DNA from: Lingula anatina
Taxonomy: Eukaryota > Animalia > Brachiopoda
DNA length: 64,000 bases
Reading direction: 5' to 3'
Assembly (NCBI GenBank): GCA_051362555.1
Contig: CM120642.1
Span: 11,098,001-11,162,000 of the forward strand
In this document: in pieces, positions 23,145-62,729 of the stretch
How positions within the stretch are numbered: position 1 is the first letter of the stretch
Layout: every line of letters begins with the position of its first letter
Program-made: the position numbers and the translations under genes
The notes under the pieces: generated by a model
What the model was told of the DNA's origin: nothing
What the model saw: only the letters and a program-made list of their open reading frames with translations
Database searches by the model: none

Positions 23145-26055
23145 TGGGCCCCGTATCTCGAAAGCTTCGCTTATGGCGAGCGGGCGCAAGCATGGCGATT
23201 CCGCGCTATCCCATATCTCGAAAGCGTCGCAAATGGCGACCGTGCGCTAGTTTCGAGGCTATTATTTGCGGCGATACAAATTAGTCGCAATTAAGGCCTC
23301 TGCGTATGCATAATTTGTCATTTTAATGTGCCTTTAATGTAAATAAACATAGTGGCAAGTTTGGGTTGCTAGTAATAATAGCATATAACAAAAGCTATAA
23401 CAAAAACATGGAAGCTTATAATAGATTGAATCACTCGGTACCTCTGATAGAAAAACTTGCGGTAAATATTCACGTGAAGAATGCTAAATTCATGTTTTAT
23501 GATGCATTAACATTTCAAAATTAAACATTTCATACATCATTTTATATTTTCTGATGAATATAATTCATCTGTGTAGTCTACTGATAATAATCATAAATTT
23601 AAAAGTGTCATTTTCTACACAAAATGAAAAAGCAGAAACAAGGCATTCGGTCGCACCGTGACCTTCCTCAATGTCTGTTATTGTGAGACTGAACACTATT
23701 CACCAATGCGTCAGTAGGGTCCCTTTACACTGGACGGCGTCCTTTCTGCGTTCCTTCTGCGTTAAAAAAATGTGGTCAGGACGCTCAACAGTCGCCAAAG
23801 CAATTAAATCGTGCCTCAGTGTAAAGGCGTCTGCGTCCCTTGTGCGTCCTTTGAACGACCGAATCTTGATTTTACCTGTAAAACTGCGAGTGACCTGCCT
23901 GCCTCCACTGTACGTCCCCTGTGCAACCAAGGCGTCTATTGCAATGTTTGAGCGACCATTGAGCATTCTTGGTGCGTTCTCTGTAGGGGCCTACCTTCAT
24001 CGGTGATTAGTGGCGTCTATTCTACGATCATTCTGCATACTGCTTGACGGATGAGCTTTGTTTGGGCGTCCTCTATATTCTAACTCACATTTTTTCATCG
24101 GTTCTAACCAGGTCATCCAATAAAGAACATTTCCAGCACGCAAAACAAATAAATTGGAATAAACGCTTTAAACTATAGTGATGCAAGGTCTGAATGGACT
24201 GATAATCAGCCAGATGCTCATTGTTATCCTTATAAGAAGGATGGACAGGCGCCGAAAACGAGAAAGTATGACTGACACAACATAGAATATTTGAATCCAC
24301 TTTCAAATGACGCGTCCTCGGCGATGCTTGAACGTTCTTTGTGCGACCTTGGCGATCACTGTGCGTTCTTTGAGCGTCTGACGGCGTCCTGGCCAGTTTC
24401 ATGGTCGCACAAAGGACGCAGAAAGGACGCCGTCCAGTGTAAAGGGGGTTTAAGCGAAGCTTGAAATGACACACTTACTGACAAACGTGTGAGATTCGAC
24501 GTTGGCATTCTATTGAACGCCGTTTGTACAAAAAAGATGAAAGTAGGCCTATCATTTTGATCAGATTTTCCATTTTTCATTTTAAATGGAAAAACGAAAT
24601 TTGAGTTTCATTTTCCATCACATGTTGGCCATTTCTATCAAATGGAAATGAAAAACGGCCGTTTTTTTATTTTCTGACGACATGGAAATCACGCCCCCCC
24701 CCACCCCACCCTATTCTGTTTGCCCCGCTATACACGACCCCTGGATGCGTTATATAGTTCCTTTTCCCACCGATTGTCATAGGACCACCCCTGGTATTGC
24801 GTCATCTCGCGCAAAGCATGTCGGTATCTCAAAAACGATACACGCGACATGATAACCATCCCCAGAAATGCACTGCATGACGTCACGCCTAGCCCACTGC
24901 GCATGCGTGCATTTTAAATGAGTTGCTAGATTGCCATAGGAAAATGAATGAGTTCGCGATTCGTGGGTAGGCCTAATACGTGAGAATTAACAAACTAACG
25001 GCCTGATGCCGATAGACAGCAACGCTGTGCTATGCTTCAAGCAACTCCTGGCCAAATATCGCTAGGGTTTTAAAAAAAATTATGTTGTACACACGTACTA
25101 AGAAGTTTGCCGTATATTGCCTAGACTACCCTCAGCAAAACGCAAATATTTTCAGTAATAGTGATTTTAGACGGTAGATTCACCCAGAAACAAAGGGAAA
25201 TTAATTCGTTGCCGATAGCACCAGCTGATAGCAGTAACATACAGAGTCTGATTAAAAAATTTCATGGCAATTGAAGATTTTTTACCACTGTACAATGGAG
25301 TCCAAAAAGAGCACTTGGCACAAATGTAAAACTGCCCAGTGCAAGGCCAAGAATTCAATCAGCATTTTCAATCATATTATCAGATTCTACATAAATTGAC
25401 TGACCATATCACTACTCAGTATTTAACTAATCTCTCAATCCGAAATTCCTATCATCAATTAATAATTATGCAAAATTCTTCTTTCAGATTGCTATTTATT
25501 TAAATTTTTAATGCTGCAACTGTTCCAAAATAATCTTGTAGTAAAGGAAAAATGCAAATTAAAGTGGAAGACCAATTTTACCCACAGTATTCAATTATTT
25601 GAATATAAAAAGAATAAGATCACGATTTAACAAATTAAAATAATCTATCATGAACTCTTTCATGAATATCATATTAAACAAAAATGAATGTTATAAATCA
25701 GTGGTAATGGCTCATTCTGGAATATATGACCTCTGTACATCATCAGTACCTGACTTGGTACAGTATAGTTACTACTTGGATACAGAGTTAGATTTAATAA
25801 TGTAACAATAAGAACAATATATATTATAATAATAAACTTCTCTGCACATATCAGACGCTTGTTACCATGAACTAACACTACCTGTACTTGACAATGGGCT
25901 GAGCACTTATCACAGAGTCTGTGGGCTGCCATTCTTGTGCTGTGATTGGTTAGTTGAGTCACGTGAACCTCTACTGTTGCGCCCTCGCGTATCGCGAAAT
26001 GCTGCACATTTCTGGCCATGACGCGAAATGCTGCACATTTCTGGCCATGATGAGA
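23145..26055. mobile_element. Cluster of nested or adjacent insertions upstream of copy 4
   Basis: About 2.9 kb largely absent from the homologous position before copy 2 (about 10910-11010). Begins GGGCCCCGTATCTCGAAAGC (TIR-like, internally repeated ATCTCGAAAGC), contains the 23716-24450 MITE, and 23648-23714 resembles 48419-48485. Confidence 0.55.
23716..24450. mobile_element. 735-bp MITE (PIF/Harbinger-like, tentative)
   Basis: About 30-bp TIRs CCCTTTACACTGGACGGCGTCCTTTCTGCG at both ends; related short copy at 1777-1987. Confidence 0.8.
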
Positions 26056-26134
26056 TAAAACATTCCATTTACTATAAGTACTACCTGGTCAGTGCGAAAC
26101 CCCGAGATCTTAGTGGGAACATATAATATTAGCT

Positions 26135-29100
26135 ATGCCACGGCCACTATGCACTGGCAAGCTTCGCATTAAAGATGGGAATATCTGGCTTGAGCAATGG
26201 TTTGAACTTGAACCTTGTAAACTGAAATGCTATGGACATCAGAGGTGAGTAGGCTCTCTCTCTCTCTCTCTCTCTCTTTGGTCGAAAGGCGAGAAAATGC
26301 TGCTGGGGGTGGGTATTCTTGTGGCAGTCTCTTCAAAACATTCTACACAACTAGACCGGAAGTTCGTTTGGGACACGGACAGTAAAGCGTGTAGTGCCAA
26401 CGGGTATGTTTATGTCTCGATCTGAAAAGGCAGATCACATGACTGGACTGATAGCGAGACTGACTGACATATAGTTTTTAGCCGGACTTCTACATGAAAA
26501 GACGTGCTATCCAAGAAATTAAGAAAGTGACAATTTGGTTCAAGCTAAAGAGCTTTAAAGGTAAGAAACATACTATTACCTTAATTAGAATCCAAAGGGA
26601 ATTCTACATTGGCGACGAGGAAGCACGAACTCACGTAGCTTAAGTAAAATTCAAAAAAGAAAAAATTGTGAGGACACGAGGTAAGTGGTGAAAGCGCCCG
26701 TCACTCGTGTATTAGAATTCACTCGGTCAGCGATATAACAATAATATACTGTCAGTAAAAGTGCTGTTAGTATTATTGTGTATTGTGTTAGTGTTATCTA
26801 GGTTGTTTTGTCTTTTTTGAATCTTATTTTTGGGTATTCGTTGTAATTTCGTTCAAAAGTGAACACTATTCTCAAAATGGCGGGTCACGTGGATAGATTC
26901 TACATCAATTATGCCACTGACCCTCAACTTCAAGACATACCCGGTGTCACATCAGGGCAGGCCCGAATGTTATATTTGTTAAGAGCTCAAAGGGGTAACT
27001 TAACAAAAGGTTTGGTAGAGGAATGGTTGGATGTTCAGTTGTCTCCTTTAGCCCTTAGTGTGATAGACTTTTCCCCTAACCCTCATTTATCGGGGTCAGC
27101 AGATTCTAGGTCATCTTGGATACCAAATTTAGGTCAGAATTGGTTATGGCAATCTGCTAAAAAGTTGTTTAGTTGGGGTAAAAGGAAACCGACTGTTTTA
27201 AATACAACATATCCCTTTCAGTCTGTGGCTAAAAATTATGAGACTAGTGAAAGCACTTTTCTCAAAACTCCACCCCAGAGGGGACTTTTTCCATCCAACC
27301 CTGAGGTTCAAAGGAACTCAACTAACCCTCAATTACAAAATGTTGCTGTATACCCTGAGGTTCAAAGAAATCCGACTGGTTCAAATTTTCAAAATGTTGC
27401 TGTCTACCCTGAGGTTCATAGAAATCTTAATGGTCCACATTTTCAAAATGTTGCTGTCTACCCTGAGGTTCATAGAAATCTGAATGGTCCACATTTTCAG
27501 AATGTTACATCCAATGTCAACCCTGAGGTTCAAAGGAACTCAAGTATACCACATTTGCAAAGTTTTTCAACCAGTGTCAACCCTGAGGTTCAAAGGAACC
27601 AGACTAGTCCACATTTTCAAAATTTTTCAGCCAGTGACCACCCTGAGATTCAAAGGAATCTAATTAACCCTCATTTTCAAAATTTCTCAGCCAACCCTGA
27701 GGTTCAAAGGAACCAAAATAACCCCATTTTTGTCAATTCAAATTTTGGCACTAATATTGCAAATACACCAGCTTTTCCCATTAACGCAATGGGAGGGGAG
27801 GATTATTATCATTCACAAGAATCCCCCATGCAAATAGATCAACCTACAATTCCAAACATTTCTGCATCTAGACGTATGGTATGCCCCCCTAAAAATCTAA
27901 CTTTCAATGGAAAGACAAGCTGGGCAGCCTTTAAACTAGTATTTTTAAGGCACGCAGAAAGAGAGGGTTGGGATTCAAATATGTGCCTGGATGGACTTTG
28001 TTTATGCCTCAGTGGAAAAGCACAAGAGTGTTGTGTAAATGTGACCAAACGTGAAGGCATATTGACCTACAAGGGCCTCTTAGAAGAATTGGAGATGTGC
28101 TATGGAGAAACGGACACACCAGTGACTGTGCGTTCGCGACTCCATAATTCACTACAGAGTGAAACTGAATCAGTGGATGAATGGGGTGTGCGCGTTCTAA
28201 GGCTCGCGTCACAAGCCTACCCCAGCTTGCCTAAATCATTTGTGGACTCAGAGGCTGTTAACAGATTCTGCGCTGGAATGTTGGATACAGAAGCTGGACA
28301 AGCCATTTACATGCAACGTCCTCAAACCTTACATGAAGCTATGCAATTAGCTAAAATGCATAGAGAACTTAAGGTCACCATGGAGACAAAGAAGGGGCGC
28401 ACTATGACCAAAAGGGTTAATAGTGTGACACAACAGCCTGATATGAAAGATGAAAAGTCATCCAGTAATATCTCTGAGATGGTAACTTTTAAAGAAGAAC
28501 TAGGAAATGTGCAAAAGGCACTTAAAGAGATAGCACAACAATTGAATCAAAGACCATGCAATGACCGGTGGGGGTGGCGTAATTCAAAGGAATTATAACC
28601 CCAATCCATCTTATGCAGGTAGAGGACGTGGCAGAGGTAGAGGGTATGTAAATTGTTTTTCCTGCGGAGCTGGAGGTCATTTTGCCAGAGAATGTCCATC
28701 TAATCCACAGGGAAATGGCAGAGGGTCGGGGAAATAGGCCAACCCTCGACCCATGAATCAACAGGCCCAGACGTCAAGGAAAAGCCCTGCTTTAAGCCTC
28801 TTAAGAAGATGAATTCAGCACCCAGTCATTCCTCTCCATTAAAAGTAATGGAAGGAAATGAAATGTTAATGATGCAGAGAAAGAAAGAAGTCAAAAGTAA
28901 AGAGGGAAAACCAGCACCCAGTCATTCCTCTCCATTAAAAGTAATGGAAGGAGATGAGAATTTAATAATGCAGAAAAACAGAGGAGTCAAAAGTGACAAA
29001 TCTGTAGTAGTGTTATGTAATATTGGTTTAACATCCTGCTTAACACTCAATGTACAAGTGGGAGATAAGAAGATTAAAGCTGTAGTGGATACCGCAGCCG

Positions 29101-32100
29101 ATGTAACTATACTGTCCGATCGAGTATATAAAAGTATGAAGAATCCTCCAAGAAAATTGAATGATGTGAAAATGTTATGCGCAGGACGTAACATGACAAT
29201 GGAGGGATTCACTGCAGGGCCATTGAAATTGAAAATAGGAAAAACATGGTACCAAGAACAGGTGTATGTGGCACCCATAGAACAGGATATGTTACTTGGA
29301 TTTGATCTTCTAACCCAAAGGGGTCAAGCTATAATAGACACCCATCATAGAACTCTGCATTACGATGGCATGACATTAACCATGGATAGTGACCCCAAGG
29401 GGACATCTCCACAGGTGGCGAGAGTAAAAGTACTCAAACGTCAAGTAATACCTCCAAACTCAATCGTAAAAGTACGATGTGTAATGGATGTGGACTTAAT
29501 TGACTATGTCATCGAGCCAACAGAAGGGGTGAAAGGTAAATTTCTGATACCTAGGGTAATTCGTAATGCAGGGACAGAGCCCATCATGGTACTAATTAAC
29601 CCTAGTTACCGTCATCGCCTATTAAAGAAAGGTGCTGAAATAGGAAGGGCTTTTATTTATGATCAAATAATGACGCCTGGGAAAGAAGAAGAGCAGGTAA
29701 TGTTACCATCATGTAATACTTGCTATGATATACCAGAGCATAAAGATGCAACTAAACTAGCAAAGGCTACTTTAGAAAAACATGCAACTTCTAGGAAGGG
29801 AAATACAGTTACCATAAGGGTGAATAAAATCACCACAGATGAAAATGAGATCAATGATAAGATGTATGTACCACCCCACTTACAGCAGGTGTTTAAAGAA
29901 TCTTGCACTGAGCTAAAAGTAGGTCAGTGTGAGCAGTTGGCACAAGTACTGAGAGAATACCAGGATGTTTTCGCAAAGGATGAATTCGACCTAGGCAATT
30001 TTACAGCGATAGAACATGTGATAGAGACTAGTGGTGCGAAACCTATAAAACAACGAATGAGACGGACACCAATTTGTTTTGCAGAAGAAGAAGGGGCCCA
30101 CTTGCATAAGATGTTACAAGCTGGTGTGATTAAAGAATCTACATCAGATTGGGCATCACCTCCAGTGTTAATTCGAAAGAAAGACGGATCAGTTAGATGG
30201 TGTATTGATTATCGTGCACTTAATGAAGTGACGGTAAAGGACGTGTTTCCATTACCACTGGTGGATGACTGCCTTGATACATTATCAGGTAATGTCTATT
30301 TTTCCAAGTTAGATGCTAACTCAGCTTATTGGCAGGTACCAATAAGGGAAGAAGACAGGAAAAAGACAGCCTTTATAACCAAGTATGGCCTTTATGAACA
30401 TGTGAGGATGGCTTTTGGTTTATGTGGAGCACCTGCGACTTATGCCAGGATTATGAATCTGGTTTTTAGAGGAATGACATGGGAAACTGTGCTAGCTTTC
30501 CTGGATGATATAGTAGTTCTAGGAAAGTCTTTTAATGATCATTTAAAGAACTTAAGAGAAGCCCTCACCAGATTTAGAATGTATGGATTGAAATTAAAGC
30601 CTAAAAAATGTGCATTTTTGCAAAAGAAAATTGAATTTCTAGGTCGCACAGTAACAGGAGATACTCTTGCTGTATCAGATCATGATGTAAAAATTGTAAA
30701 GGACTGGCCAACTCCACAAACTTCAAAGGAAGTGGAAAGATTTATGGGCTAGCTAACTATCACAGGGCTTTTATTAAAGATTTCAGCAAAATTGCTACAC
30801 CACTGTATGCAGTGACTGGAAAGAAGAACTTCCAATGGGAAGAAAAACAGGAAGTAGCCTTTAATCGCTTAAAAGAAGCATTAACTACTCCCCCTGTTCT
30901 CGCAGTGCCAACGGGAACTGACGAGTTTATATTAGATACTGATGCCAGTGAATATGCCATAGGAGCTGAATTAATTCAGGTTCAGAATGGACAGGAGAAG
31001 GTGATTGCATATGGCAGTTATGGTCTCACTAAAGAGCAGAGACGTTACTGCACAACACGTAAAGAACTACTGGCAGTTGTAAGATTCACTCGACAGTTCA
31101 GACATTACTTACTGGGAAAGCCGTTTAAAGTAAGGACTGACCATTCAAGCTTAAGATGGTTGATGAGATTTCGGGAGCCGCAGGGACAGTTAGCGCGATG
31201 GATGGAGGAGTTAGCGCAATACAATATGGTGTTATCCCATAGAGCGGGGCGTAAACATGGGAATGCTGATGCTTTGTCTAGAGTTAGCCATACCGGGCAG
31301 TGTGTCAACATAAGCACCAAAGGGCGGCTGGTTGACCTACCATGTGGTGGGTGTGATTATTGTAAGCGGGCTCAGAAAAACTGGGCCAGGTTTGAAGAAG
31401 ATGTGGATGATGTAGTGCCACTGGCAACTCGGGGAGTTAATAGCCAAAGGGCAACAGACATCAAGGGTGAAGATTTCTCATCAGACCAGATATGCGACAA
31501 TGGCAAGACAGTCTATACAGTAACGGTAGACTCAGAAAGGGAGTATACTGAACCAGAAGTGCTGGGAGAAAGAGTAGATGGTATTCCAGAGGAAAGTATA
31601 GATGATATGCCAGAATTTAAAGTTATGCAGTGCATAATTGACAACATTCCGTGGGATCCAGGAGAATTAATTCAGGTGAATATGGTAAAGACCAGTCACC
31701 AGGCACCAGGGGGAGCTACTCAGAAAGCTGATGATAGCTCTTCACACTTGACCAGTTGGGGTTATTCTGTTGATGAAGTAAAACAGGCACAGTCAGCAGA
31801 CAGTGAGTTGAAGGTGATTATAGATTATAAAGTGGATGCTACTGAACCAGATCAGTCCACCCTATTTAGAGGCAGTCAGGCGTTGAAAGCATACTGGCTG
31901 AACAGAGACCTGTTTACCATCATTAATGACATCTTGTATTGGTGTGATCCAATTAGTGAGGATAAAAGGTTAGTGTTGCCCTCCAGTTGGCGTGAGGAGG
32001 CCATGAGGATGCATCATTGTTTACCATCTGCAGGGCATCAAGGAGCAAAAAGGACTAAAGAGCGCCTTAAAGAAAGATTTTACTGGTACGGCATGGGCCG

Positions 32101-35100
32101 TGAAATTGATAACTTTGTCATGGGATGCCCGAGATGTAATCAGAATAAAAAGTCATCAAGACAGGGAAAAGTCCCTCTTAGAGAATTCCAGGCAGGTGCA
32201 CCCATGGAGAGAGTACACTTAGATTTCCTTGGCCCTTTGCCAAAGACTGCAAAAGGAAATGAGTATATTTTAATGATGGTGGATCAATTTACTAAGTGGA
32301 TTGAATGCATTGCACTTCCGTCTCAATCGGCTGAAGAAACTGCAAAGGCAGCTATAGATCAATTTTTCTCTCGTTTTGGAGCTCCTTTTGAAATTTTTAC
32401 AGATCAAGGGAGAAATTTTGAATCAAAATTATTTTTAGAAGTGTGCCGGGTTTTAGGAATCTATAAAGCACGAACAACACCATACCGTCCCTCAAGTAAC
32501 GGTCAAGTAGAACGCTACAATCGGACATTGATGGATGCAGTGAGGTGTTTTACAGAAAAGTCACAGAATACCTGGGATGTGAATTTGCAACAAATAGCTG
32601 GAGCATTAAGGGCTTCAGTGAACAGGATGACCGGATTCACAGCAAACAGACTAATGTTAGGTCGTGAGGTGAATGCACCCGCTGACTTAATGTTTCCTCA
32701 AAGGAGGATTAATAATGAAGATCCTGAAAATTATGCTGCACAGTTAGCTGAAGATATGAAGGAAGCACATGAGATTGCTCGCAGAAAGCTGCAAGCAGCC
32801 TCTAAACGTATGAAAAGAGATTATGATCTCAGGATACTGGAGAGAGCATATGAGGTTGGTGATGCAGTGTATATATTGGACACGGCAGATACTAAAGGCA
32901 AATGTAGAAAATTATGTCCACCGTGGAAAGGACCTGGAGTGATTGTAGCCAAATTAAGTTCTAACTTATTCCGAGTGAAGGTTAGAAATGCAGTGTTTGT
33001 GGCCAATCATGACCGACTTAAGCCGTGTAAAGACACGGAATTACCACAGTGGATTGGACATTGGAGGAAAAATCCAGAGAGTCATGCGACCCGAAGGGGT
33101 GATGACAGAGTCTACTGTAACTGCCGACAGCCATGGCACGGTAGATTTATGATACAGTGTGACTTCTGTGGTGAATGGTACCATGGCTCCTGTGTGAATG
33201 TGACTGCTACTGATGCCTTGGAGATTAATAAATATAAATGTCCGGATTGTTTACGCCGAGCAAAAGTGCTGGTGTAAAAGAATGTACATTATAGTAAAAG
33301 TACTGATTTCAAGGGGCAAGTAGTAGAGGGAGGAGATCCTAACAAAGGCTAGTATATATGTAGATCGGTTGGCACCAGAAATGTAATTTGTTTTTCAGGC
33401 CAGACTTGGTATAACCTGGTTAGATGGTCGTGGCAGGGGTGTAAGTGACATTCCTGACTGCGAGTACTATGTACACAGCCCTGAAAGTGAAGGGAGGTGT
33501 GTAGTAAGGTGGGGGTTCAATCTTTTTGGATAAAGAGGGGAAGAGTGTAGTGCCAACGGGTATGTTTATGTCTCGATCTGAAAAGGCAGATCACATGACT
33601 GGACTGATAGCGAGACTGACTGACATATAGTTTTTAGCCGGACTTCTACATGAAAAGACGTGCTATCCAAGAAATTAAGAAAGTGACAATTTGGTTCAAG
33701 CTAAAGAGCTTTAAAGGTAAGAAACATACTATTACCTTAATTAGAATCCAAAGGGAATTCTACAAATATGTGCATTATGATTGCCACAGTGAGTAGGCCC
33801 CTACGTCCTTATTCTTTTCGTATGTGACGGAAGACCAGAATATTCACAGGGGGTGGAAAAGAGCGGCATGAACAAGTACTTATATAATTTGGTCGTCTCT
33901 TGTGGCGCGCATGAACAGCGTTCGATCCGCCACACCTGGGTCTTTGACAGCAGATTGCCCGTTTGCAAGCTGTCTTTGGGACATTGCAAAAGTTATTCTG
34001 TTTTTTCACCTTTTTTCAGCATATATGCAATACCGAAGACATGCTTTAAGGAAAACTATAACGAAGACTCTCTGTACTGTTAACAATCTTTATTCTTCGT
34101 TTATTTGTAACAGTAACTGTTCTCCATTAGGTAGGCTAGCACGCCATGTATCCCTGCCACCAAGACAGTTTGGTCGACATTAACATATGAGATAAAGCAC
34201 TCACTGTTTGACCAATAGGTCATTGACAAGTGACTAAATAGTTTAGGGCTTTTGTCATGCCATGCTTTGCAAAGGTCAGATTTTTCATTTCTTTCATTTT
34301 TTTTAAATTAAATTTTCAAATCAGTATATCACCCAGAGGAGGATAATAATCATACACAGGGCGAATATGCAGTCCTAGATTTATAAGGTGGTCTTAAAAA
34401 TATAGAATAATTGTATTTTATGTTTGGAGAAACCACTTAAAGTTTTCTAGGAGCCCCCTCCCCCTCCTCCTCCTTAAAAATTAAAAAATATTTGGGAGTT
34501 TTCAACTTGTAAGAACAAGCAACGTTTAAAATGAATTTTTGAGCTGGGCTATTCAGTTTCTGTTACACACACATATGCACACACACACACACACACACAC
34601 ACACTTTTTTTCATTTTGCCCAGCCCCACTCCCCCAAATTTGGAGTGGGACAAGTAAATTGTCAGACTTACTAGCCCTGCAGGGCAAGAGCCTGAAAACA
34701 GTTTGTCTAGCCTTGTGGTGTGTGAATATTTTGAGAAAATTCCAAGATGAGTTCCATTTGCCACAGATATAGTATTTCAACTTGCATCCTATGATGTGTG
34801 CCTTGCTGACACTTGAATCGTTCTGGCATATACCGTATGGGTGACAGTGCATTTGTTAATCACCTCACAAATTTCTACTAGTAATTACTTTAAAATTACA
34901 GAGGGCAAAATGAGAATGATGCACCTGAAGCCATAATAGACATCACGAATGCCAGGGTCCAGGGGACAGAAGACCAAAATCTACATAGTTTTGAAGTAAC
35001 TGCTGGAGGAGTGACATATGAACTGGACGCGGATTCAGCAGAAGAGAGAAAGATGTGGATGGAAGCCTTAGAACAGGCCAAAGGTATGTTCTCATTTTAA

Positions 35101-36672: not shown

Positions 36673-37987
36673 CAATACATCCAGACCTACTGTAATACTT
36701 CCGTGTGAAAAGCGCCCCCTGTGATTGTCGTGTTTTTTGTTGTGTTGTTACTTTCGTGTTGGGGTCAAACTTCGGAACTTTCAAGTCGAAATCCTTTTCC
36801 AGCTGGAATTTTAATAATTTATATCAACCTTGCAGTGAAACAGTTTGTATATTTTGATCGGTGTTTGTCCGTATTGTCGCCTTTTCTGTCGCCGTCGACG
36901 TCGCTGCCCGACACATGACGTTCGCCCCATAACTGCCAAACCGTATTTTTCATTAGCTAAATATATTAACTGAGTAGCTTTGTTTAGCTTTGTTTGGTAA
37001 ATAGACAGCTCGCTTTCGAAATTTGGCATAATCGGTTTACATGAACGATAATTTTTTTTCCAAAATTTCTACATTATTACATTAGCCCCAGAACTGCCAA
37101 ACTGTATTTTTGTTTTACTTTAAATTTACTGAGTGTCTTTGTTTGGTAAATAGGCAGGTTGCTTTCAAACATCGCCATGATGATCGGTTTAAAATTACTG
37201 TGATTATTTCGCTTTTTAACTGTTTAAGTGACATTCGCCCCATAACTTCAATACCGCATTTTCGTTTTACTTTACTGTGGCTGAGTAGCTTTGTTAAGTA
37301 AAAATGCAGGTTGCTTTCAAAATCAGCATGACCGGTTTACATTAACGGTAATTATTCTTGTTTGTGTTAAGTGTATATTTGTCAGCTTTGCTGTCTAGTG
37401 AACCACATTTGTGTCCGCAAAAACTTCATTTTAACCTATGAGCTGATCCAATGTAAAGCTAACAAGCACTCAGACAGGCTTTACCTGCAACATGACGGCT
37501 CAATTCTAAAATTTATGAATTAACTCAGTTCTTCTTATTTATTGCTTATCTGATTAATAAGCTAAATTATTTTTATTTTAACTGACCTCTTATTTGATTA
37601 TTAATAAATTAATGTTTTATTCATTACACATTTTAAATGATTCATGAATCTTTCTTTTCAGGTCCACGACGTAGTTCAGGAATTCCGATAGTCGGAGGTG
37701 TCATCGGCGCGGTAGGGGCTGTTGCTTTAGCCCCTGTCGCTCTAACAGTCGTGGGATTTACCAGCGGCGGGATAGCCGCCGGATCCATAGCCGCCTCAAT
37801 GATGAGCAGTACAGCGATTGCAAATGGCGGAGGTGTGGCGGCGGGCAGTCTCGTGGCGTTGCTTCAGTCGGCAGGTGCAGCTGGACTTGGGACGGCAGCA
37901 ACCGGAGCTGTTGCGACTGTCGGAGGAGCAGCTGGAGCCGCAGTCGCAGGAGTGGGACAAAAAATCACACAGTTGTTTAGGAATTAA
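26135..37987 (+). CDS. PH-domain-IFI27/ISG12 fusion protein, copy 4 (type B), 205 aa; Gypsy element in intron 1
   Basis: Exons 26135-26244 ([36 protein letters not shown]), 34902-35083 and 37662-37987. GT-AG sites, frame open. Confidence 0.8.
26390..26608 (+). repeat. 5' LTR (219 bp)
   Basis: TGTAGTGCC...ATTCTACA; identical by eye to 33546-33764. Confidence 0.95.
26610..26621 (+). promoter_or_regulatory. Primer-binding site, tRNA-Ser(GCU) type
   Basis: TGGCGACGAGGA one base after the 5' LTR; complementary to the ...TCCTCGTCGCCA 3' end of animal tRNA-Ser(GCU). Confidence 0.8.
26877..28737 (+). CDS. gag: Gag (N-terminal HhH-like motif, tandem peptide repeats, capsid, RG-rich region and CCHC knuckle), with a 1-nt frameshift near 28555-28560
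   Basis: ATG at 26877; capsid-like [11 protein letters not shown]. The +1 frame from about 28561 reads MTGGGG...[33 protein letters not shown] to TAG. Confidence 0.85.
27295..27720 (+). repeat. Coding tandem repeat in gag, about 8 units of 54-60 bp
   Basis: Recurrent ACCCTGAGGTTCA encoding (N/Y)PEVQRNxxxPHFQN. Confidence 0.9.
28710..33277 (+). CDS. pol: Pol (aspartic protease, RT, RNase H, integrase, C-terminal PHD finger), split by a 1-nt deletion at about 30750
   Basis: Motifs [58 protein letters not shown] and WKGP. FMG-TAG at 30750 resumes as [11 protein letters not shown] in the adjacent frame. Confidence 0.92.
33528..33545 (+). promoter_or_regulatory. Polypurine tract
   Basis: GGATAAAGAGGGGAAGAG directly before the 3' LTR. 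Confidence 0.85.
33546..33764 (+). repeat. 3' LTR (219 bp)
   Basis: Direct repeat of 26390-26608. Confidence 0.95.
36609..36671. repeat. (TA)n microsatellite
   Basis: Directly visible. Confidence 0.95.
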
Positions 37988-44379: not shown

Positions 44380-46521
44380 CTATTTTCTCCGTTTAGAACT
44401 CCGTTTACCTGGCGTTGCCACCTCCCCTGTTATAGAGCCTTCATCTTGACTAGAGAAGTCAACACTCTCTGTAGCAACATCTTCATGAGGCTGTGGTCTC
44501 TTTGTCGATCCCGATCCTTCTTGTTTTTCACTTTGCTTATCCTCCGAATGCGCGCGGCTTGACACACCCTCACCAAAGTTCACATGCCCGGATGGAACCC
44601 CATACTCGTGAGCGCTCTCAATATTCTTCTGCGTGTCGTCGAAAAATATGTGCGCTTTTATAGCGCTGAGGACAGGGCCCTTAGGTCGCCCGCATAGGAA
44701 ATTGCACTCATTTATTTTGAGGCCCCAGCTACGCAGAGTCTTAAGCGTCCGTATCCCAGAACCGTGGCTAGAGCTGCGGGCGGTCACGATATAGGTCCTG
44801 ATGGGACTGGGGTTAAAGTTGGCATCTTCCAAACGCTTTTGCATCTTTCCTATGGCTACAGCAAACGGTTTAAGAGGCCCCTGCGACAAGAATTACTTAA
44901 TTACAAAACAGAATTTCAAAAAGAACAACATTCATGTCTTTCGTAGGGCAGTTTGCACATTGATATTTATATTTAATCGTTTTGCCCTTTTTCTTTCAAA
45001 ATTTCTTTGTGCATATGGCTTGTGATTTTAACACAGAATGACTCTCTAAAATAAAATTCATGCTAAATGATAGTATATAACCGTAGTCATATAATTATAC
45101 TTTTAAGTAATTAAAATTACTTTAGACCATTTATGTGCTTGTTAAAAATTGCAAATAACATTTTCCCACCTCTGGCAAAGGTTCATTCATGCGTTCATTC
45201 TCGAAGTCCAGGAAGGCTCCCAGCCCCTTTGTCTGGAAGATCTGCTCAGCCTCGTCAGAGAACAACACGGCGTCGCAGTCAAATACGATCCTTAACTGGT
45301 CGACTGATTGGTTTTCTGCCATTTTTTGAGGAAAGATTGCTGCGGCACCAAATCCTTAAAGATGACATAAAACATTGATCAGTGGGAAAGCTCGACAATT
45401 ACATTTCACTTTAGAACCGCTAGAATAGGATATGAACCAAGAGCCATTAAACACTAAACGATCCTGCTGTCAAGTTTTTTTTGCGACATTTGGTGGACAA
45501 ATGAGATCAAATGCACCAGAGGTTACTAGTAAAACCACTAAAACATTTGAAGTATATGGTGAAAGCTAGATACGCCTTCTTGCCTGCTTTCAACGCTTCC
45601 TGAACCTCGTAAGTGTGTGACGACAGATATAACGTGATGTCGTAAGCTTTCAGGTAACCCACGAGCGACGCTCCGTCCGTCAGACACATCTGATCAATCT
45701 TCAGCCCTGCATGAGTAATGAAATACCAGAATTAATGCATAGTGAAGACGCAGTAGAATATGATATTTTATTCACTTTTGACACCCTCGGTTTTACCTAC
45801 TGTAGTACATGTAAGCAACTAAAAGGTTTGGAGTCCCACTATGTATATTAGCCCTTATTGTAAATATTCGATATTATCGATACTCTTAAGCATTAAAATG
45901 CGCGGCACCAACATCAAAATTACAGCACCCCCTCCTCGCGCGCCCACTCACCCATACACCACATACCGTGATGATGTATTGACCGTATAAGTCGTATTCC
46001 GGCAGTGTCTGCTTGGTTGTGGCTCATTAGAACGATCTCAAACAGCTCATTTTCAGGCGCACCTGCTTCTTTTAATTTTGCGTTCACTGTGTGGGCCGCC
46101 TAAAATACGAAGTGTTAGCTAAGGCATATTACTGCAAAATGTACCCTCAAAAACGATTACATTATGCCCCGGACTGGGTTGACTGTTAAAAAGTTTCGTC
46201 AGTCTTTTCGTTTCATTTGAAAAATGTTCTGCAACGTTTTTGTGCTATCAATGCATGTTTTCCCGGATGTCGGAGCTAAAATAAATGTAAATTTATCAAA
46301 CTAATAGATAATTCAGAGACTGTCAACTCACAATGGGGGACGTGGGGTTTTACGCTAAGTTATACCTTAATGAATGGGAACGCAGTTCCTGGTTCCAAAA
46401 TTTCTTCCTCGTGAGCGTGATGATACTCTGTGTACGCTTTCACACCCTGCTCCTTGAAAATGGTGTATTCTTTGGTCTGATCAAACAGAGCACGACTGGA
46501 TACAGCTATCTTCACCGCAGG
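44380..46521 (-). CDS. NT5C1A: Cytosolic 5'-nucleotidase I-like (cN-I, HAD superfamily); first coding exon not located
   Basis: Minus-strand exons 46521-46366 (KIAVSSRALF...PGTAFPFIK), 46099-45967 (FEIVLMSHN...GIRLIRSIHHH), 45706-45584 (YLKAYDITLYLS, GC donor), 45354-45170 (QLRIVFDCDAVLFSDEAE) and 44880-44380 (PIRTYIVTARS...KGPVL...HIFFDD). The symbol denotes the family, not demonstrated orthology. Confidence 0.9.
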
Positions 46522-53266: not shown

Positions 53267-56200
53267 TTAGAGTGACATTACATGACCAGTAAGGTGCTGC
53301 CCCCAGTCGGCCAAAATAAGCACTAAAATGCAGCAGGGGGGGAGGGCATGTAAAACTGGCCCCAGGCAGTTAAATTTCACCTTGATATGAAAAATAACAC
53401 ATCAAATTGAAGGTAAATAAACAAATTAATTTCTAAAATTGATTTAAAAATTTCCAAATGATTATCTTTTTCTTATATGCAAATCTTCTTGCTTCAAACT
53501 TACTAAACAAGAAAGGCCGGAAGTGACGTATAATTTTAAGTGCACCTTCTTCAAATTTTTGGTAAATATTGGAACAACCTATCTGACAAACTTATCTGCC
53601 CCTTCATAAACAGCACAGAGAGCAAGCAGAAAAATTCTTTCGGGTAATATGAAACGATGCATTTCTGTAATTTTAAGTTATAATACATGGTGGCATTTGG
53701 TTGACTTTTCTTGCAAAAATTTACTTAAAATGCATCTTTATATGTAATTTTAAATCTAAGACGCAGAATCTACTATGATTTCATAGGGCCGATTTGCAGC
53801 TCCCAGAAAGTTGACTACCGCCGACGGCACTGTCATATAAAAGGGTTCTTTGAGTGGCTCACCGGTATTCAAAGACATGAACGGAGACGGCCTAAAAGAT
53901 CTGCTTCTTTCTGAATGGGCTTATTACCTCGCCCCCATCTCTCTTTTCATCAACACTGGGACATCAACACAACCTACGTTTTCTGCCCCTAAAGTTTTAA
54001 TTAACAATAACGCTGGCGGTGTTCGTTTTGATGCAGCTGATTGGAACAACGACGGCCTGAATGATCTGGTGGTTGGGCCCGACAGGCAACCGTTTGCCTA
54101 CTACCCAAATGAAGGTACAGCCTCAAGTCCCATTTTCAGCAGTTCATTTACAAACATCCAGGATGGTTACACCACAATTCCCCATCACTATCCTCGAGTT
54201 GTTGATTGGAGGGGTGACGGAAAAGAATATATTTTGTACAGCGGTTATTTTCCGAGCGACGGCGTCCATATTTGGACAAAAGATCCAAGCACAGGAAAAG
54301 AAGAAGATGCGGTTATGTTAGGCTTTGGCACAGATTGGAAACAAATTGAGAACAAAGTTGGGTACAGTCTTTCATCCAACATTGCCGATTTCAACGGTGA
54401 TGGTCTAACTGACTTACTTATTTCTGGTAAACGGGCCAAACACGTTATATTTTGGGGCAAAGACATAAACCAGGTGACCCAGCACCACGTTGATGAAATT
54501 GCCGCCACACTGAGCCAGCACAGCACAGACCTTGGATCAGTGATGGAGAGCAATGATCAGGTATGTAAGAAATTGCAGTTACACCAGGATGTTTTGTTGA
54601 AGCTCGCAATCTTGCCTATGCCAGATTCGTTCAAGGAATATTTTTTCAACACACTCGCAGCTCTGGTGCAAAAATACCCACAATACTTGAGTAGACAACG
54701 TTTTTCTTCCACATACCTAGCCTATTTCTCCTTCTATACCTGGATAATAATGTTGGAAGGAAGGGACGACACGAGAAGTAATCGACTCGGGTTGGCTGAA
54801 GTGAGTAATCACACAGGAAGTTTAAAGGACGTTCTTGTTGAGAGGGGAGTTATGTTGATAGACAATGACCAATCTTCGGAACTAGCAAATCGCCTGTTGA
54901 GAGATTATGTTTTGTCCCTGCGAGCCGAATACTTCTGGATTGAACGCATAAGTAAGAATTGTGCGCTAAGCGGCATTGACGGGCGCAGATATACCTACAG
55001 GCAGGTGCGAAAGGGGGGAGTTAATGTATTCTGTAACGATGAGCACATCTCGATAAGAAAACACATTCTACCTGGTTGTAAGGTATGTAAAACGCATGGT
55101 AACCCGGTGGGAAATTTTCTTGTTTCTGTTGTCGCTCACGAAATTGGTCACAACTACGTAGAATACCCTGAGGTGAAGGCGAAGAGGCTCTTGTTGATGA
55201 AAAGAGCCTTGCTAGGTAGTCCGGATATTTTCTGGAAAGATAACAATCGCTACGACTCTACGAAAACGCAGGAACATTTTGCAAGCAAAGGTTGGTTCAA
55301 TCCCGGTTCCGATAATTGGAACTCGATTTTACATGCCTATTTCAATGGACAGTTCATTCCTGAAGCTGCTCAGTACCAATATCAGATCATCACTGATGTC
55401 AACCCAAGCTACGTTGTGCTAACTAATCCCCAGGAATTCTTCGCTTCAATCGCCCAATGCTTCTCTATGGACTCCAAGATGCTGATGGACATTGCTGTCG
55501 AACGTTTTCTTAGTACGCCATCATACAAAGAGTCCATAAATCAAATTTTGTTCTTGGTTGAGTACTACTCTCTCGGTGGAGGCACTTCACGATTTTGGAT
55601 GCATACCCATTCAGGTAACATATATTATTATGAAGTTACCCTCGAAAGAAATCCCAAGGATCACATCGTCGGCGTTAGTGTCCCCAAAGATGTTGCGAGG
55701 AAAGTTGAAAACCCCAATGAAGCATATTTGGTGGATTTGCCAAGTCCACATGTGTATCGGTTCCAGGTTGATGGCGATGGGTTTGTTACCGCCATTGAGG
55801 AGTACCCGGCATATATCAATCCATAGACTTATAAGAAAACAATACAATCGAAATCGATCTTAATGTCCATTTTTCCTTCCACTAGACTAGAGGAGAAATA
55901 AGTATCTTTAATATATCCAATGTGACATTAACCAAGCCATAATGTTTCTGTAAACATGACCAAGTTCAGAGTAAATAAATCTTTGAATTACATGCCTTGT
56001 TAATCATGGTTTTAACTAAACAAAATGGATCTTTACAAAAAAGCACAGAACACATTTCAACACCGGGTTTATTTGTATAAAAATTCTAGGTCACTAGATG
56101 CAATTTCCCCAAACACTGAATTGCAAACACCACAACTGCCATAATCAGTTTATATGTATATCTGATTATGTGTCTTATAGCAGGTCAAGATAGCTACAAG

Positions 56201-59422: not shown

Positions 59423-62400
59423 ATGATGAAAATGCTGCTGTTTGTAGCGTGCTTAAGTCTGCTTATTTCAAGTGGAAAAACAAGGTAAATATATCTAAAT
59501 AATAATCTTGTGAAAAAAAAAAAAAAACAGAAGAGCATAAATTTATGTTAACTGGTGACGTTTTTTAAATTGCTATCATTAGCTGTTAAAAAATTAGAAA
59601 GTTGTGTAGAAGCAAACAGTTTTAACACTCGCTTTTCAGGCGGATGTTTACAATCGCTTCCAAAAATTCTGATAATTGTTTTACCATACAGTTTCATACC
59701 CGATTGTCAGCGTCCTCTAAGATAACATTCAGGCTTATGACATTCTGTCATCGGATTTCCTCTATCCATTCGTGTCTAAATATTGATGTTTCCGTTTCTG
59801 ATCATTTAAGTTAATGTAAAAAAAAATTAACTTGTAATTTCATGTTGACCCTTATTGCAGTAAGAGGCAAGTGGATTGCAAGCCAGGAGTACCACTATAC
59901 CGCAGCGTTTTTGAACCAGACAGATTCACCATGGTCTCGGACGAAGGCGACCAAGAAATTGCACTGGGGCCTCGAGCAGAAACGTGGACCTACACCACAG
60001 ACTTCGATGACGACTGCGATATTGACATTTTGGCCGGCAACGGGGGATATGTGTATTTGCTGGAAAATACTGGCGACTCGAGCAATGTAAGTACCATGTC
60101 CTCCAGACTGAATTTATGGACCTAGTTTTGTTTTAACCTATTTACAAAATCTGTTTGTTGTGCTGTAAATATAATATTTTAACTTAGTTTCAGCCGTTAT
60201 TTGCAAATGGTCGCTTAAATTTTTACATAAATTGAGTCTTGGAGTAAAGGACATAATTTAAGTCTTGTTTTTTTTTTTTTTAAATTTTATATAAAATTAT
60301 TTAAAGGAACATTTGAACCTAGTGTCGGTAAAAGGGTGGATTTCCAGTAACGCATATAAACCACCTGTACTATTTTCTTATACGACTAAAATAAAGTCGG
60401 CATGCTAAGGGATATACCAAATCAATCACTGGATGAGCCATAAAAGAGCTTTTAAGTGCACCTTCTTCAAATTTTGGTAAATTGGAACAAACTATCTGAC
60501 ATACTTATCTGCCCCTTCATATACAGCACAGAGAGCAAGCAGAAAATTCTTTCGGGTAATATGAAACGATGCATTTCTGTAATTTTAAGTTATAATACAT
60601 GGTGGCATTTGGTTGACTTTTCTTGCAAAAAATTACTTAAAATGCATCTTTATATGTAATTTTAAATCTAAGACGCAGAATCTACTACGATTTCATAGGG
60701 CCGATTTGCAGCTCCCCGAAAATTGACTACCGCCGACGGCACTGTCATAGATAAGGGTTATTGGAGTGGCTCACCGGTATTCAAGGACATGAACGGAGAC
60801 GGCCTAAAAGATCTGCTTCTTTCTGAATGGGCTGGTGACCTCACCCCCATCTCTCTTTTCATCAACACTGGGACATCAAAACAACCTACGTTTTCTGCCC
60901 CTAAAGTTTTAATTAACAATAACGCTGGCGGTGTTCGTTTTGATGCAGCTGATTGGAACAACGACGGCCTGAATGATCTGGTGGTTGGGCCCGACAGGCA
61001 ACCGTTTGCCTACTACCCAAATGAAGGTACAGCCTCAAGTCCCATTTTCAGCAGTTCAGCTACAAACATCCAGGATGGTTACACCACAATTACTCAACAC
61101 TATCCTCGAGTTGTTGATTGGAGGGGTGACGGGAAAGAATATATTTTATACAGCGGTTATTATCCGAGCAGCGGCGTCCATATTTGGACAAAAGATCCAA
61201 AAACAGGAAAAGAAGAAGATGCCGTTCTGTTAGGCAGTGACGCACAAATTGGGAACAAAGTTGGGTACAGACTTTCATCCAACATGGCTGATTTCAACGG
61301 TGATGGTCTAACTGACTTACTTATTTCTGGTAAATGGGCCAAACTCGTTATATTTTGGGGAAAAGACATAAACCAGGTGACCCAGCACCACGTTGATGGA
61401 ATTGCCGCCATACTGAGCCAGCACAACACAGACCTTGGATCAGTGATGGAGAGCAATGATCAGGTATGTGAGAAGTTGCAATTACACCAGGATGCTTTGT
61501 TGAAGATCGCCAACTTGCCTATGCCAGAGTCGTTCAAGGAATATTTTTTCAACACACTCGCAGCTCTGGTGCAAAAATACCCACAATACTTGAGCAGACA
61601 ACGTTTTTCTTCCACATACCTAGCCCATTTCTCCTTCTATACCTGGATAATAATGTTGGAAGGAAGGGACGACACGAGAAGTAATCGACTCGGGTTGGCT
61701 GAAGTGAGTAATCACACAGGAAGTTTAAAGGACGTTCTTGTTGAGAGGGGAGTTATGTTGATAGACAATGACCAATCTTCAGAACTAGCCAATCGCCTGT
61801 TGAGAGATTATGTTTTGTCCCTGCGAACTGAATACTTCTGGATTGAGCGCATAAGTAAGCAATGTGCTCTAAGCGGCATTGACGGGAGCAGATATACCTA
61901 CAGGCAGGTGCGAAAGGGCGGAGTAAACGTATTCTGTAACGATGAGCACAGCTCGACGAGAAAACACATCTTACCTGGTTGTAAGGTATGTAAAACGCAT
62001 GGCAATCCGGTGGGAAACGGTCTTGTTTCTGTTGTTGCTCACGAAATTGGTCACAACTTCGTAGAATACCCTGGGGTGAATGCGAAGAGGTTCTTGTTGA
62101 TGAAAAGAGCCTTACAAGGTAGTCCGGATATTTTCTGGCAGGATAACAATCGCTACGACTCTACGAAAACGCAGGAACATTTTGCAAGCAAAGGTTGGTT
62201 TAATCCCAGTTCCGATAATTGGAACTCGATTTTACATGCCTATTTCAATGGACAGTTCATTCCTGAAGCTGCTCAGTACCAATATCAGATCATCACTAAT
62301 GCTAACCCAGGCTACGTTGGGCTTACTCATCCCCAGGAATTCTTCGCTTCAATCGCCCAATGCTTCTCTATGGACTCCAAGATGCTGATGGACATTGCTG

Positions 62401-62729
62401 TCGAACGTTTTCTTAGTACACCATCATACAAAGAGTCCATAAATCAAATCTTGTTCTTGGTTGAGTACTACTCTCTCGGTGGAAGCACTTCACGATTTTG
62501 GATGCATACCCATTCAGGTAACATATATTATTATGAAGTTACCCTCGAAAGAAATCCCAAGGATCACATCGTCGTGGTGAGTGTCCCCAAAGATGTTGCG
62601 AGGAAAGTTGACAACCATAATGAAGCATATTTGGTGGATTTGCCGAGTCCACATGTGTATCGGTTCCAGGTTGATGGCGATGGGTTTGTTACCGCCATTG
62701 AGGAGTACCCGGCATATATCAATCCATAG
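59423..62729 (+). CDS. Secreted FG-GAP/VCBS-repeat protein with a C-terminal HExxH (gluzincin-like) metalloprotease domain, copy 2, 772 aa
   Basis: Exons 59423-59484 (signal peptide MMKMLLFVACLSLLISSGKT), 59861-60086 (DFDDDCDIDILAG...LLENTG) and 60699-62729 (DMNGDGLKDLL, DWNNDGLNDLV, DWRGDG, DFNGDGLTDLL; VVAHEIGHNF; downstream THPQEFFAS). Canonical splice sites, open frame, AATAAA downstream. Confidence 0.88.

Follow-up and report, generated by a model that had tools for sequence, protein, structure and literature searches.

A Ty3/Gypsy retrotransposon in Lingula anatina with a conserved integrase-terminal PHD finger predicted to read H3K4me3

When a retrotransposon integrase ends in a domain that resembles a histone reader, does that domain help to choose where the element inserts? 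This question is raised by a 64,000-nt stretch of Lingula anatina DNA (hereafter, the window), in which a Gypsy integrase was predicted to end in a PHD finger of the H3K4me3-reader type and to lie next to a first exon, and from which a PHD-guided, promoter-seeking LTR retrotransposon had been proposed.

The features of the element, of its host gene, and of a third gene found in its relatives are collected in Table 1. The element is a Ty3/Gypsy LTR retrotransposon. Its pol domains follow the Gypsy order (protease, reverse transcriptase, RNase H, integrase), with RVT_1 and rve both present, and the top Foldseek matches of its integrase are foamy-virus and Ty3 integrases. The primer-binding site, presumably for tRNA-Ser, has the same start in the relatives L006, L029 and L030.

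Table 1. Coordinates of the element, the surrounding host gene and the third frame of related loci. Positions are those of the window unless a locus is named.
Feature	Position	Strand	Evidence or remark
Copy 4, first coding exon	26135..26244	+	First half of PH domain; apparent RNA 5' end ~26040-26100
5' LTR, 219 nt, TG...CA	26390..26608	+	Identical to 3' LTR
Primer-binding site	26610..26627	+	Complementary to tRNA 3' end (CCA)
gag-like frame	26877..28598	+	Weak Ty3_capsid and PNMA matches
Protease and reverse transcriptase frame, first part of pol	28704..30752	+	Pfam, open frame
RNase H, integrase and PHD frame, second part of pol	30686..33277	+	Pfam, open frame
Integrase H2C2 zinc-binding domain and DDE core	31980..32550	+	Catalytic motifs present
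GPY/F module (KLCPPWKGP ... NHDRLKPC)	32861..33030	+	Followed by variable linker to PHD; beta-rich in model
PHD finger (C4HC3), integrase C-terminus	33110..33250	+	Pfam, alignment, AlphaFold model, fold search
Cage positions	Y810 (33113), W817 (33134), M822 (33149), W831 (33176)	+	Mapped onto PHF2
Polypurine tract	33530..33545	+	Beside 3' LTR
3' LTR, 219 nt	33546..33764	+	No target-site duplication; last two bases equal the two empty-allele bases
Copy 4, exon 2	34902..35083	+	PH domain PF00169, E 6e-8; splice with exon 1 seen in X15, X16
Copy 4, exon 3	37662..37984	+	IFI27-like PF06140, E 1.5e-26; RNA loose end at 35085
TatD third frame, PHD loci	L001:2278-4284, L006:8546-10990, L008:6346-9588; L013, L031, L081-L091		
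TatD third frame, PHD-negative loci	L030, L039, L047, L050, L053, L056		

The copy in the window is broken twice and is non-autonomous. Its gag frame stops at 28596-28598, short of a CCHC zinc knuckle that itself lies in another frame, and its pol is split over two frames that overlap at 30686-30752. Because contigs of four DNA runs show gap differences at these places, both breaks appear to be private to the window copy. The summed contig depth in X1 is a few times higher over the element (~220) than over the unique flank (~80), which suggests a low-copy family, contig depth not being a copy number. RNA depth over the element is low, and the animals that donated the RNA may lack the window copy.

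Several further observations concern the family. At the start of the gag frame (26877-27010) lies a helix-hairpin-helix-like motif, which scores below the cut-off (HHH_3, E 0.05), and a second gag-like frame in the relative L009 starts similarly. Positions 27298-27740 of gag hold a tandem repeat of ~18 codons (NP/YPEVxRN...FQN) in at least 8 units. Internally deleted derivatives of the window family are also present, with joints at 29692-33282 (seen in all four DNA runs), 31774-32919 and 33055-33355, the last of which was seen in one run and takes out the PHD finger.

The original prediction described a complete C4HC3 finger in frame behind the integrase WKGP motif, and peptide and coordinates agree with that description. 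Residues V809-C855 of the second pol frame correspond exactly to the tabulated interval, beginning 62 residues past the W of WKGP (32924). Pfam recognizes a PHD (PF00628) on residues 811-855 with 31.1 bits (cut-off 24) and an E value of 2.5e-7, and the RNase H, H2C2 and rve domains share this one open frame of 863 residues with it. The window finger has both the C4HC3 zinc ligands and the PHD fold: an AlphaFold model of the isolated finger has a mean pLDDT of 88.9, and its top fold matches among 48,161 chains are the PHD fingers of BPTF (Z 9.9, rmsd 1.5, 58 aligned) and PHF2 (Z 8.0). The top of the 42 PDB sequence matches is made up of PHF8, PHF2, KDM7A, PPS, CFP1, BPTF and DIDO1. The assignment to a PHF2/PHF8/DIDO type is thus borne out, in that the top matches, by sequence as well as by fold, are H3K4me3 readers (PHF2/PHF8/CFP1/BPTF/DIDO). 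The bit scores against the host families PHF2 (80.8), CFP1 (79.9), BPTF (76.9) and DIDO1 (75.5) are all near one another, too close in sequence terms to single out a donor family.

Four other identities were considered and rejected. One is a chance motif; another, a host PHD gene beside the element, is incompatible with a finger that lies in the integrase frame and inside the LTRs. The element is not a chromovirus, since no chromodomain is found at E values up to 0.01 and just 8 residues and a stop codon follow the finger. Nor is it a Ginger1 DNA transposon, since it has direct LTRs rather than terminal inverted repeats and RVT_1 is present. An Rfam search gave no match.

We then asked how widely the finger occurs. 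A search with the integrase tail produced 93 matches, comprising 91 retroelement proteins and two PHF2 proteins, and PF00628 is present in 80 of the 91; relatives with a named host come from gastropods, bivalves, one crinoid and one sea urchin. Searching with a profile produced 241 matches, with PF00628 in 119 of 120 among the matches listed. To avoid selecting for the finger, 80 loci were picked by integrase patterns alone: 44 have the finger, 25 are without it, and 11 are undecidable where the contig ends early or the region is missing. Trees were built after dropping rows below 200 (integrase) or 170 (reverse transcriptase) aligned residues. In the integrase-core tree (158 rows), all 116 PHD-positive rows fall in one branch and none falls outside it; this branch has 126 tips (116 positive, 4 negative, 6 undecidable) and a support of 0.962. 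The reverse transcriptase phylogeny that the original prediction had called for (90 rows, distant outgroups) likewise groups the PHD-positive elements, in a branch of 67 tips with a support of 0.835. Absence of the PHD from other family members is excluded, the finger being clade-wide in both trees. On these phylogenies, a single gain of the finger would be the simplest reading, and the PHD-negative proteins inside the clade (P0083, P0085-P0087) may reflect loss of the finger or a frameshift.

Conservation within the finger approaches that of the catalytic domain. Column conservation across 24 loci is 0.75 in the integrase core, 0.67 in the PHD finger and 0.29 in the linker, and in the finger of the pair L018/L022 there are 10 silent changes in 25 sites versus 2 replacements in 116 sites; dN/dS comparison of 25 sequences left 2 usable pairs, most pairs being saturated, and one looks misaligned. 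These data bear on the reading that the finger is an idle piece of a host gene, captured recently, and that the first-intron position of the window copy is due to chance. That position may well be chance, and the insertion junction is aberrant, as described below. However, the finger is kept, with invariant cage residues, across a clade of molluscs and echinoderms whose integrases are only ~50-65% identical. Conservation on this scale refutes an idle finger, and we give the reading as a whole almost no credence.

A search of viral contigs for related loci found none. One Mytilus member (P0234) is annotated as 'COMPASS component SPP1', and L081-L098 are host retroelements contaminating symbiont genome bins (Sedimenticola, Thiodiazotropha), in which they bear the names of bacterial integrases. 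Members filed as host genes in such ways inflate PHD and TatD gene counts.

What would such a finger bind? In PHF2, K4me3 is held in a cage of Y14, M20 and W29, capped by Y7, and the first residues of H3 are read by F19, I21, I45 and E22 (PMC8166343). When the window finger is mapped onto PHF2, Y7, Y14, M20 and W29 correspond to Y810, W817, M822 and W831, so that all four cage positions are kept, with W for Y at Y14, and the Y, W, M and W residues that had been predicted are all intact. The pocket residues F19, I21 and I45 correspond to F821, I823 and I847. The R2 contact E22 is Q824 here and is Q in 63 of 76 relatives, a set that was pre-filtered for C4HC3 and similarity to the query; loci found by integrase patterns are preferred for counts. 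Of the 44 fingers retrieved with no PHD bait, 42 could be scored; the cage W is present in all 42 and the M in 41. At cage position I, 35 of 39 fingers have Y or F. Position IV varies within the clade: of 39 fingers, 19 have D there and just 12 have W or Y. D826, which by alignment is the R2-binding aspartate of BPTF, is D or E in 41 of 42 fingers. Given that the cage and pocket residues map onto PHF2 and that D826 is kept, though Q stands in place of E22, the finger is likely to bind H3K4me3/me2.

The same surface might instead engage a non-histone mimic of H3, such as a methylated host N-terminus or one of the element's own proteins, in the service of nuclear import, assembly or cofactor tethering. 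Indeed, the PHD finger of PHF2 binds a VRK1 K4me3 peptide through this surface (PMC8166343). A mimic would also accommodate an R2 contact that differs from that of PHF2. Against this, H3K4me3 is by far the commonest ligand for PHD fingers of this class, and an acidic residue at D826 is nearly invariant; we regard a mimic as very unlikely and H3K4me3/me2 as the predicted ligand.

Many relatives carry a further gene. Right behind the finger they have a frame of 670-1080 residues that ends in a TatD nuclease domain, which was detected in 8 of 9 third frames checked at E 4e-26 or better. The TatD motifs HxH, GExGLD, H and ETD are kept, and the N-terminal part is conserved and of no known domain. 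This third frame (ORF3) is present in 18 of 19 PHD loci with at least 2.8 kb of downstream sequence, in 13 of 13 in a second scan, and in 10 PHD-negative sister loci. ORF3 thus occurs in both kinds of locus, and the PHD clade lies within a larger TatD-ORF3 group. A search of the window with both ORF3 profiles gave no match, and contigs span the finger-to-LTR interval at family depth, so the window family lacks ORF3 and has kept the finger. Therefore, the finger and the TatD protein are separable.

This separability matters for the proposal that the finger acts after or apart from site choice, recruiting or shielding active chromatin where the new copy or its LTR lies, which would help the copy to escape silencing or would limit harm, possibly together with the TatD protein. 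Chromatin remodelling has been proposed as a role for transposon PHD fingers (PMC9940879, PMC8557442). The regularity with which ORF3 follows the finger in PHD loci would also fit. Yet in retroviral intasomes integrase acts once and is then removed, and a partnership with TatD sits poorly with two genes that occur apart. We consider a post-integration role distinctly unlikely.

We next consider the insertion and the gene that it entered. The window contains, at 3180-39100, a tandem array of ~4 genes that join a split PH domain to an IFI27/ISG12-like (Ifi-6-16) domain, a fusion that is unusual for such an antiviral-type family. Copy 4 of this array is expressed, with exon 1-exon 2 splice reads in X15 (12) and X16 (3). 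The sense depth in X12 is 0 in 25255-25705, 17 reads at 26047 and ~190 at 26183, and no joint upstream of exon 1 is present among the RNA joints listed for X12. From this start of coverage and the lack of an upstream joint among those listed, exon 1 is probably the first exon, as had been predicted, with the limits that reads may come from paralogues and that a high-copy repeat lies just upstream. The predicted distance is also correct: the 5' LTR (26390) lies 145 nt past the end of exon 1 (26244), which places the element in intron 1, ~300-350 nt from the apparent RNA 5' end. H3K4me3 is usually high at such a distance from a start.

An empty allele, joining 26384 or 26389 to 33763, is found in all four DNA runs and in 2 RNA reads of X15, and the insertion is therefore young and polymorphic. 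A target-site duplication of 4-6 bp was sought at both flanks and in the empty allele and none was found; the flanks differ, and the two bases between the flanks in the empty allele are the same as the last two LTR bases (26389/33765). Such a junction could stem from a small deletion during repair, from capture independent of integrase or from a fault in the assembly. Given the lack of a target-site duplication, the insertion may not be a clean integrase product and is poor evidence of integrase choice. The window copy is young and polymorphic, it is non-autonomous, and its junction is aberrant. Both flanks of relatives were sought in 80 + 24 loci, which are mostly collapsed repeats ending in the LTR, and no locus gave both.

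At 26233 and at 26384, other alleles have a short insertion, and the palindrome that results, TAGGCCTA, is identical in the two places; one of the two lies inside exon 1, and the palindrome is possibly a transposon footprint. High-copy repeats (contig depth >10,000) at 25400-26007, 33912-34215 and 23721-24446 flank exon 1 and the element, and 23721-24446 is an inverted-repeat element of ~725 nt. Elsewhere, the minus strand carries the last exon of a 5'-nucleotidase (PF06189) gene at 44380-44892 and two long single-exon-like frames, 94% identical, at 53841-55826 and 60699-62729. These two frames have FG-GAP repeats and a HEIGH zinc-metalloprotease-like motif; they look bacterial and are possibly a transferred or secreted protein family.

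Does the position of the window copy argue for targeting? A first exon occurs every ~7-8 kb in the array and the insertion was picked post hoc, so we estimate that such a position would arise by chance about one time in ten. In CpG observed/expected, the insertion site ranks only at the 28th percentile for the window, and the element itself is poor in CpG (0.44 vs 0.79); these low values do not suggest a history in unmethylated promoters. In one host set, PHD-positive elements are slightly less depleted in CpG than PHD-negative ones (0.88 vs 0.71; 11 and 5 elements, p 0.054), but the two groups do not differ when all loci are taken (48 and 33, p 0.46).

CpG proxies without a clear promoter history would fit a finger that reads H3K4me as a switch or as a general nucleosome grip instead of an address, licensing or speeding strand transfer on active chromatin with only a weak bias in site. 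RAG2 offers a functional parallel, in that the RAG recombinase, whose RAG1 subunit is a DDE recombinase, is allosterically activated via the RAG2 PHD finger. The RAG2 PHD is among the fold matches of the window finger (Z 4.1), and one entry is titled as modulating recombination activity. On the other hand, a short variable linker and a terminal position fit a simple tether, as in chromoviruses, and no contact between the finger and the catalytic core is seen in the model (pTM 0.36). We consider a RAG2-like switch unlikely, if the most credible departure from tethering.

The reading that we prefer is that the finger, as a predicted H3K4me3 reader, tethers the integration complex to nucleosomes that lie immediately downstream of active promoters, and we put its chances at about even. 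The finger would stem from a single gain, with a host reader of the PHF2/CFP1/BPTF/DIDO type as its source, in a lineage of the TatD-third-gene Gypsy group. Integrase would be cut from Pol with the finger still attached, the intasome would carry several fingers, and these would dock on H3K4me3/me2 tails. Strand transfer would then favour the 5' ends of active genes, open and transcribed regions in which first introns would tolerate insertions. That tethering results in a real bias of this kind is a proposition that could fall either way. An engineered ING2 PHD tether moved HIV-1 integration towards start sites (PMC8149907), so a finger of this sort can suffice. Tethering would be the most plausible function for a reader at the integrase tail, the place that in chromoviruses is taken by the targeting chromodomain (PMC2774666, PMC6673714).

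A bolder form of the tethering model is tentative, and we hold it to be somewhat improbable. It would have an old, undescribed clade of animal Gypsy elements, in molluscs and echinoderms and within the TatD-ORF3 group, whose integrase is a self-contained H3K4me3 reader that needs no host tether and for which the 5' ends of active genes are the intended target, as an active-chromatin mirror of the chromoviruses. Such elements would be a steady source of promoter and first-intron variation, here in an array of interferon-inducible type. A natural integrase with a reader of its own would also bear on regulatory variation in farmed shellfish.

PHD fingers have been reported in other mobile elements, including Penelope-like and CR1 elements (PMC8557442). 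A full-text literature search, to which Repbase, GyDB, subscription journals and supplements were external, found no animal Gypsy integrase with a terminal PHD finger. The term PHD has 0 occurrences in the main text of a mollusc LTR survey (PMC6238403, MolGy) and in that of PMC5890265, and passages of PMC3601003 and PMC5408684 add nothing further. A Gypsy polyprotein with a PHD finger has already been published for an alga: Gypsy-7a_cRei of Chlamydomonas reinhardtii has the finger in its Gag-Pol, its insertions are non-random (86 insertions, 2.6-fold enriched between genes), and a possible targeting role has been raised (PMC9940879). It differs in belonging to a green alga and in the order of its legend, RT, RH, PHD, INT, which suggests that its finger precedes the integrase (PMC9940879). 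REM1 of C. reinhardtii, known to us via citing papers, is likened to it as a Gypsy element with a PHD finger.

Other elements share parts of the design. Ginger1-9_HM of Hydra combines a Gypsy-type integrase, a GPY/F module and a C-terminal PHD finger, but, as a DNA transposon, it is bounded by terminal inverted repeats and lacks a reverse transcriptase; in Ginger1 the PHD lies behind a Ulp1 protease, in 1 of the 16 families listed (PMC2836005). CopiaMBD of centipedes and spiders also has a host chromatin reader in the Pol of an animal LTR retrotransposon, linked to insertion bias, whereas it is a Copia element whose methyl-CpG reader, with binding tested, directs it to methylated repeats (PMC6673714). 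The host readers PHF2/PHF8/KDM7A, CFP1/Spp1, BPTF and DIDO1/PPS have the same cage and pockets; here the finger is fused to an integrase and has Q at E22. Known tethers of other integrases are borrowed from the host: promoter targeting by MLV uses host BET proteins (PMC8149907), and the host tether of Ty3 is TFIIIB, according to the PDB title of a structure match.

The closest comparison is with chromoviruses, of whose design the fusion described here is a variant. Both have the Gypsy pol order, a GPY/F module and a histone reader at the integrase tail (PMC2774666; PMC6673714, citing Gao et al. 2008). In chromoviruses this reader is a chromodomain, and its targeting to heterochromatin is demonstrated; here it is a PHD finger whose predicted ligand is the active mark H3K4me3, the opposite chromatin state if the prediction is true. 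In that case, beside integrases that borrow host tethers and those with chromodomains for silent chromatin, this clade would provide a third design, a natural integrase with its own H3K4me3 reader.
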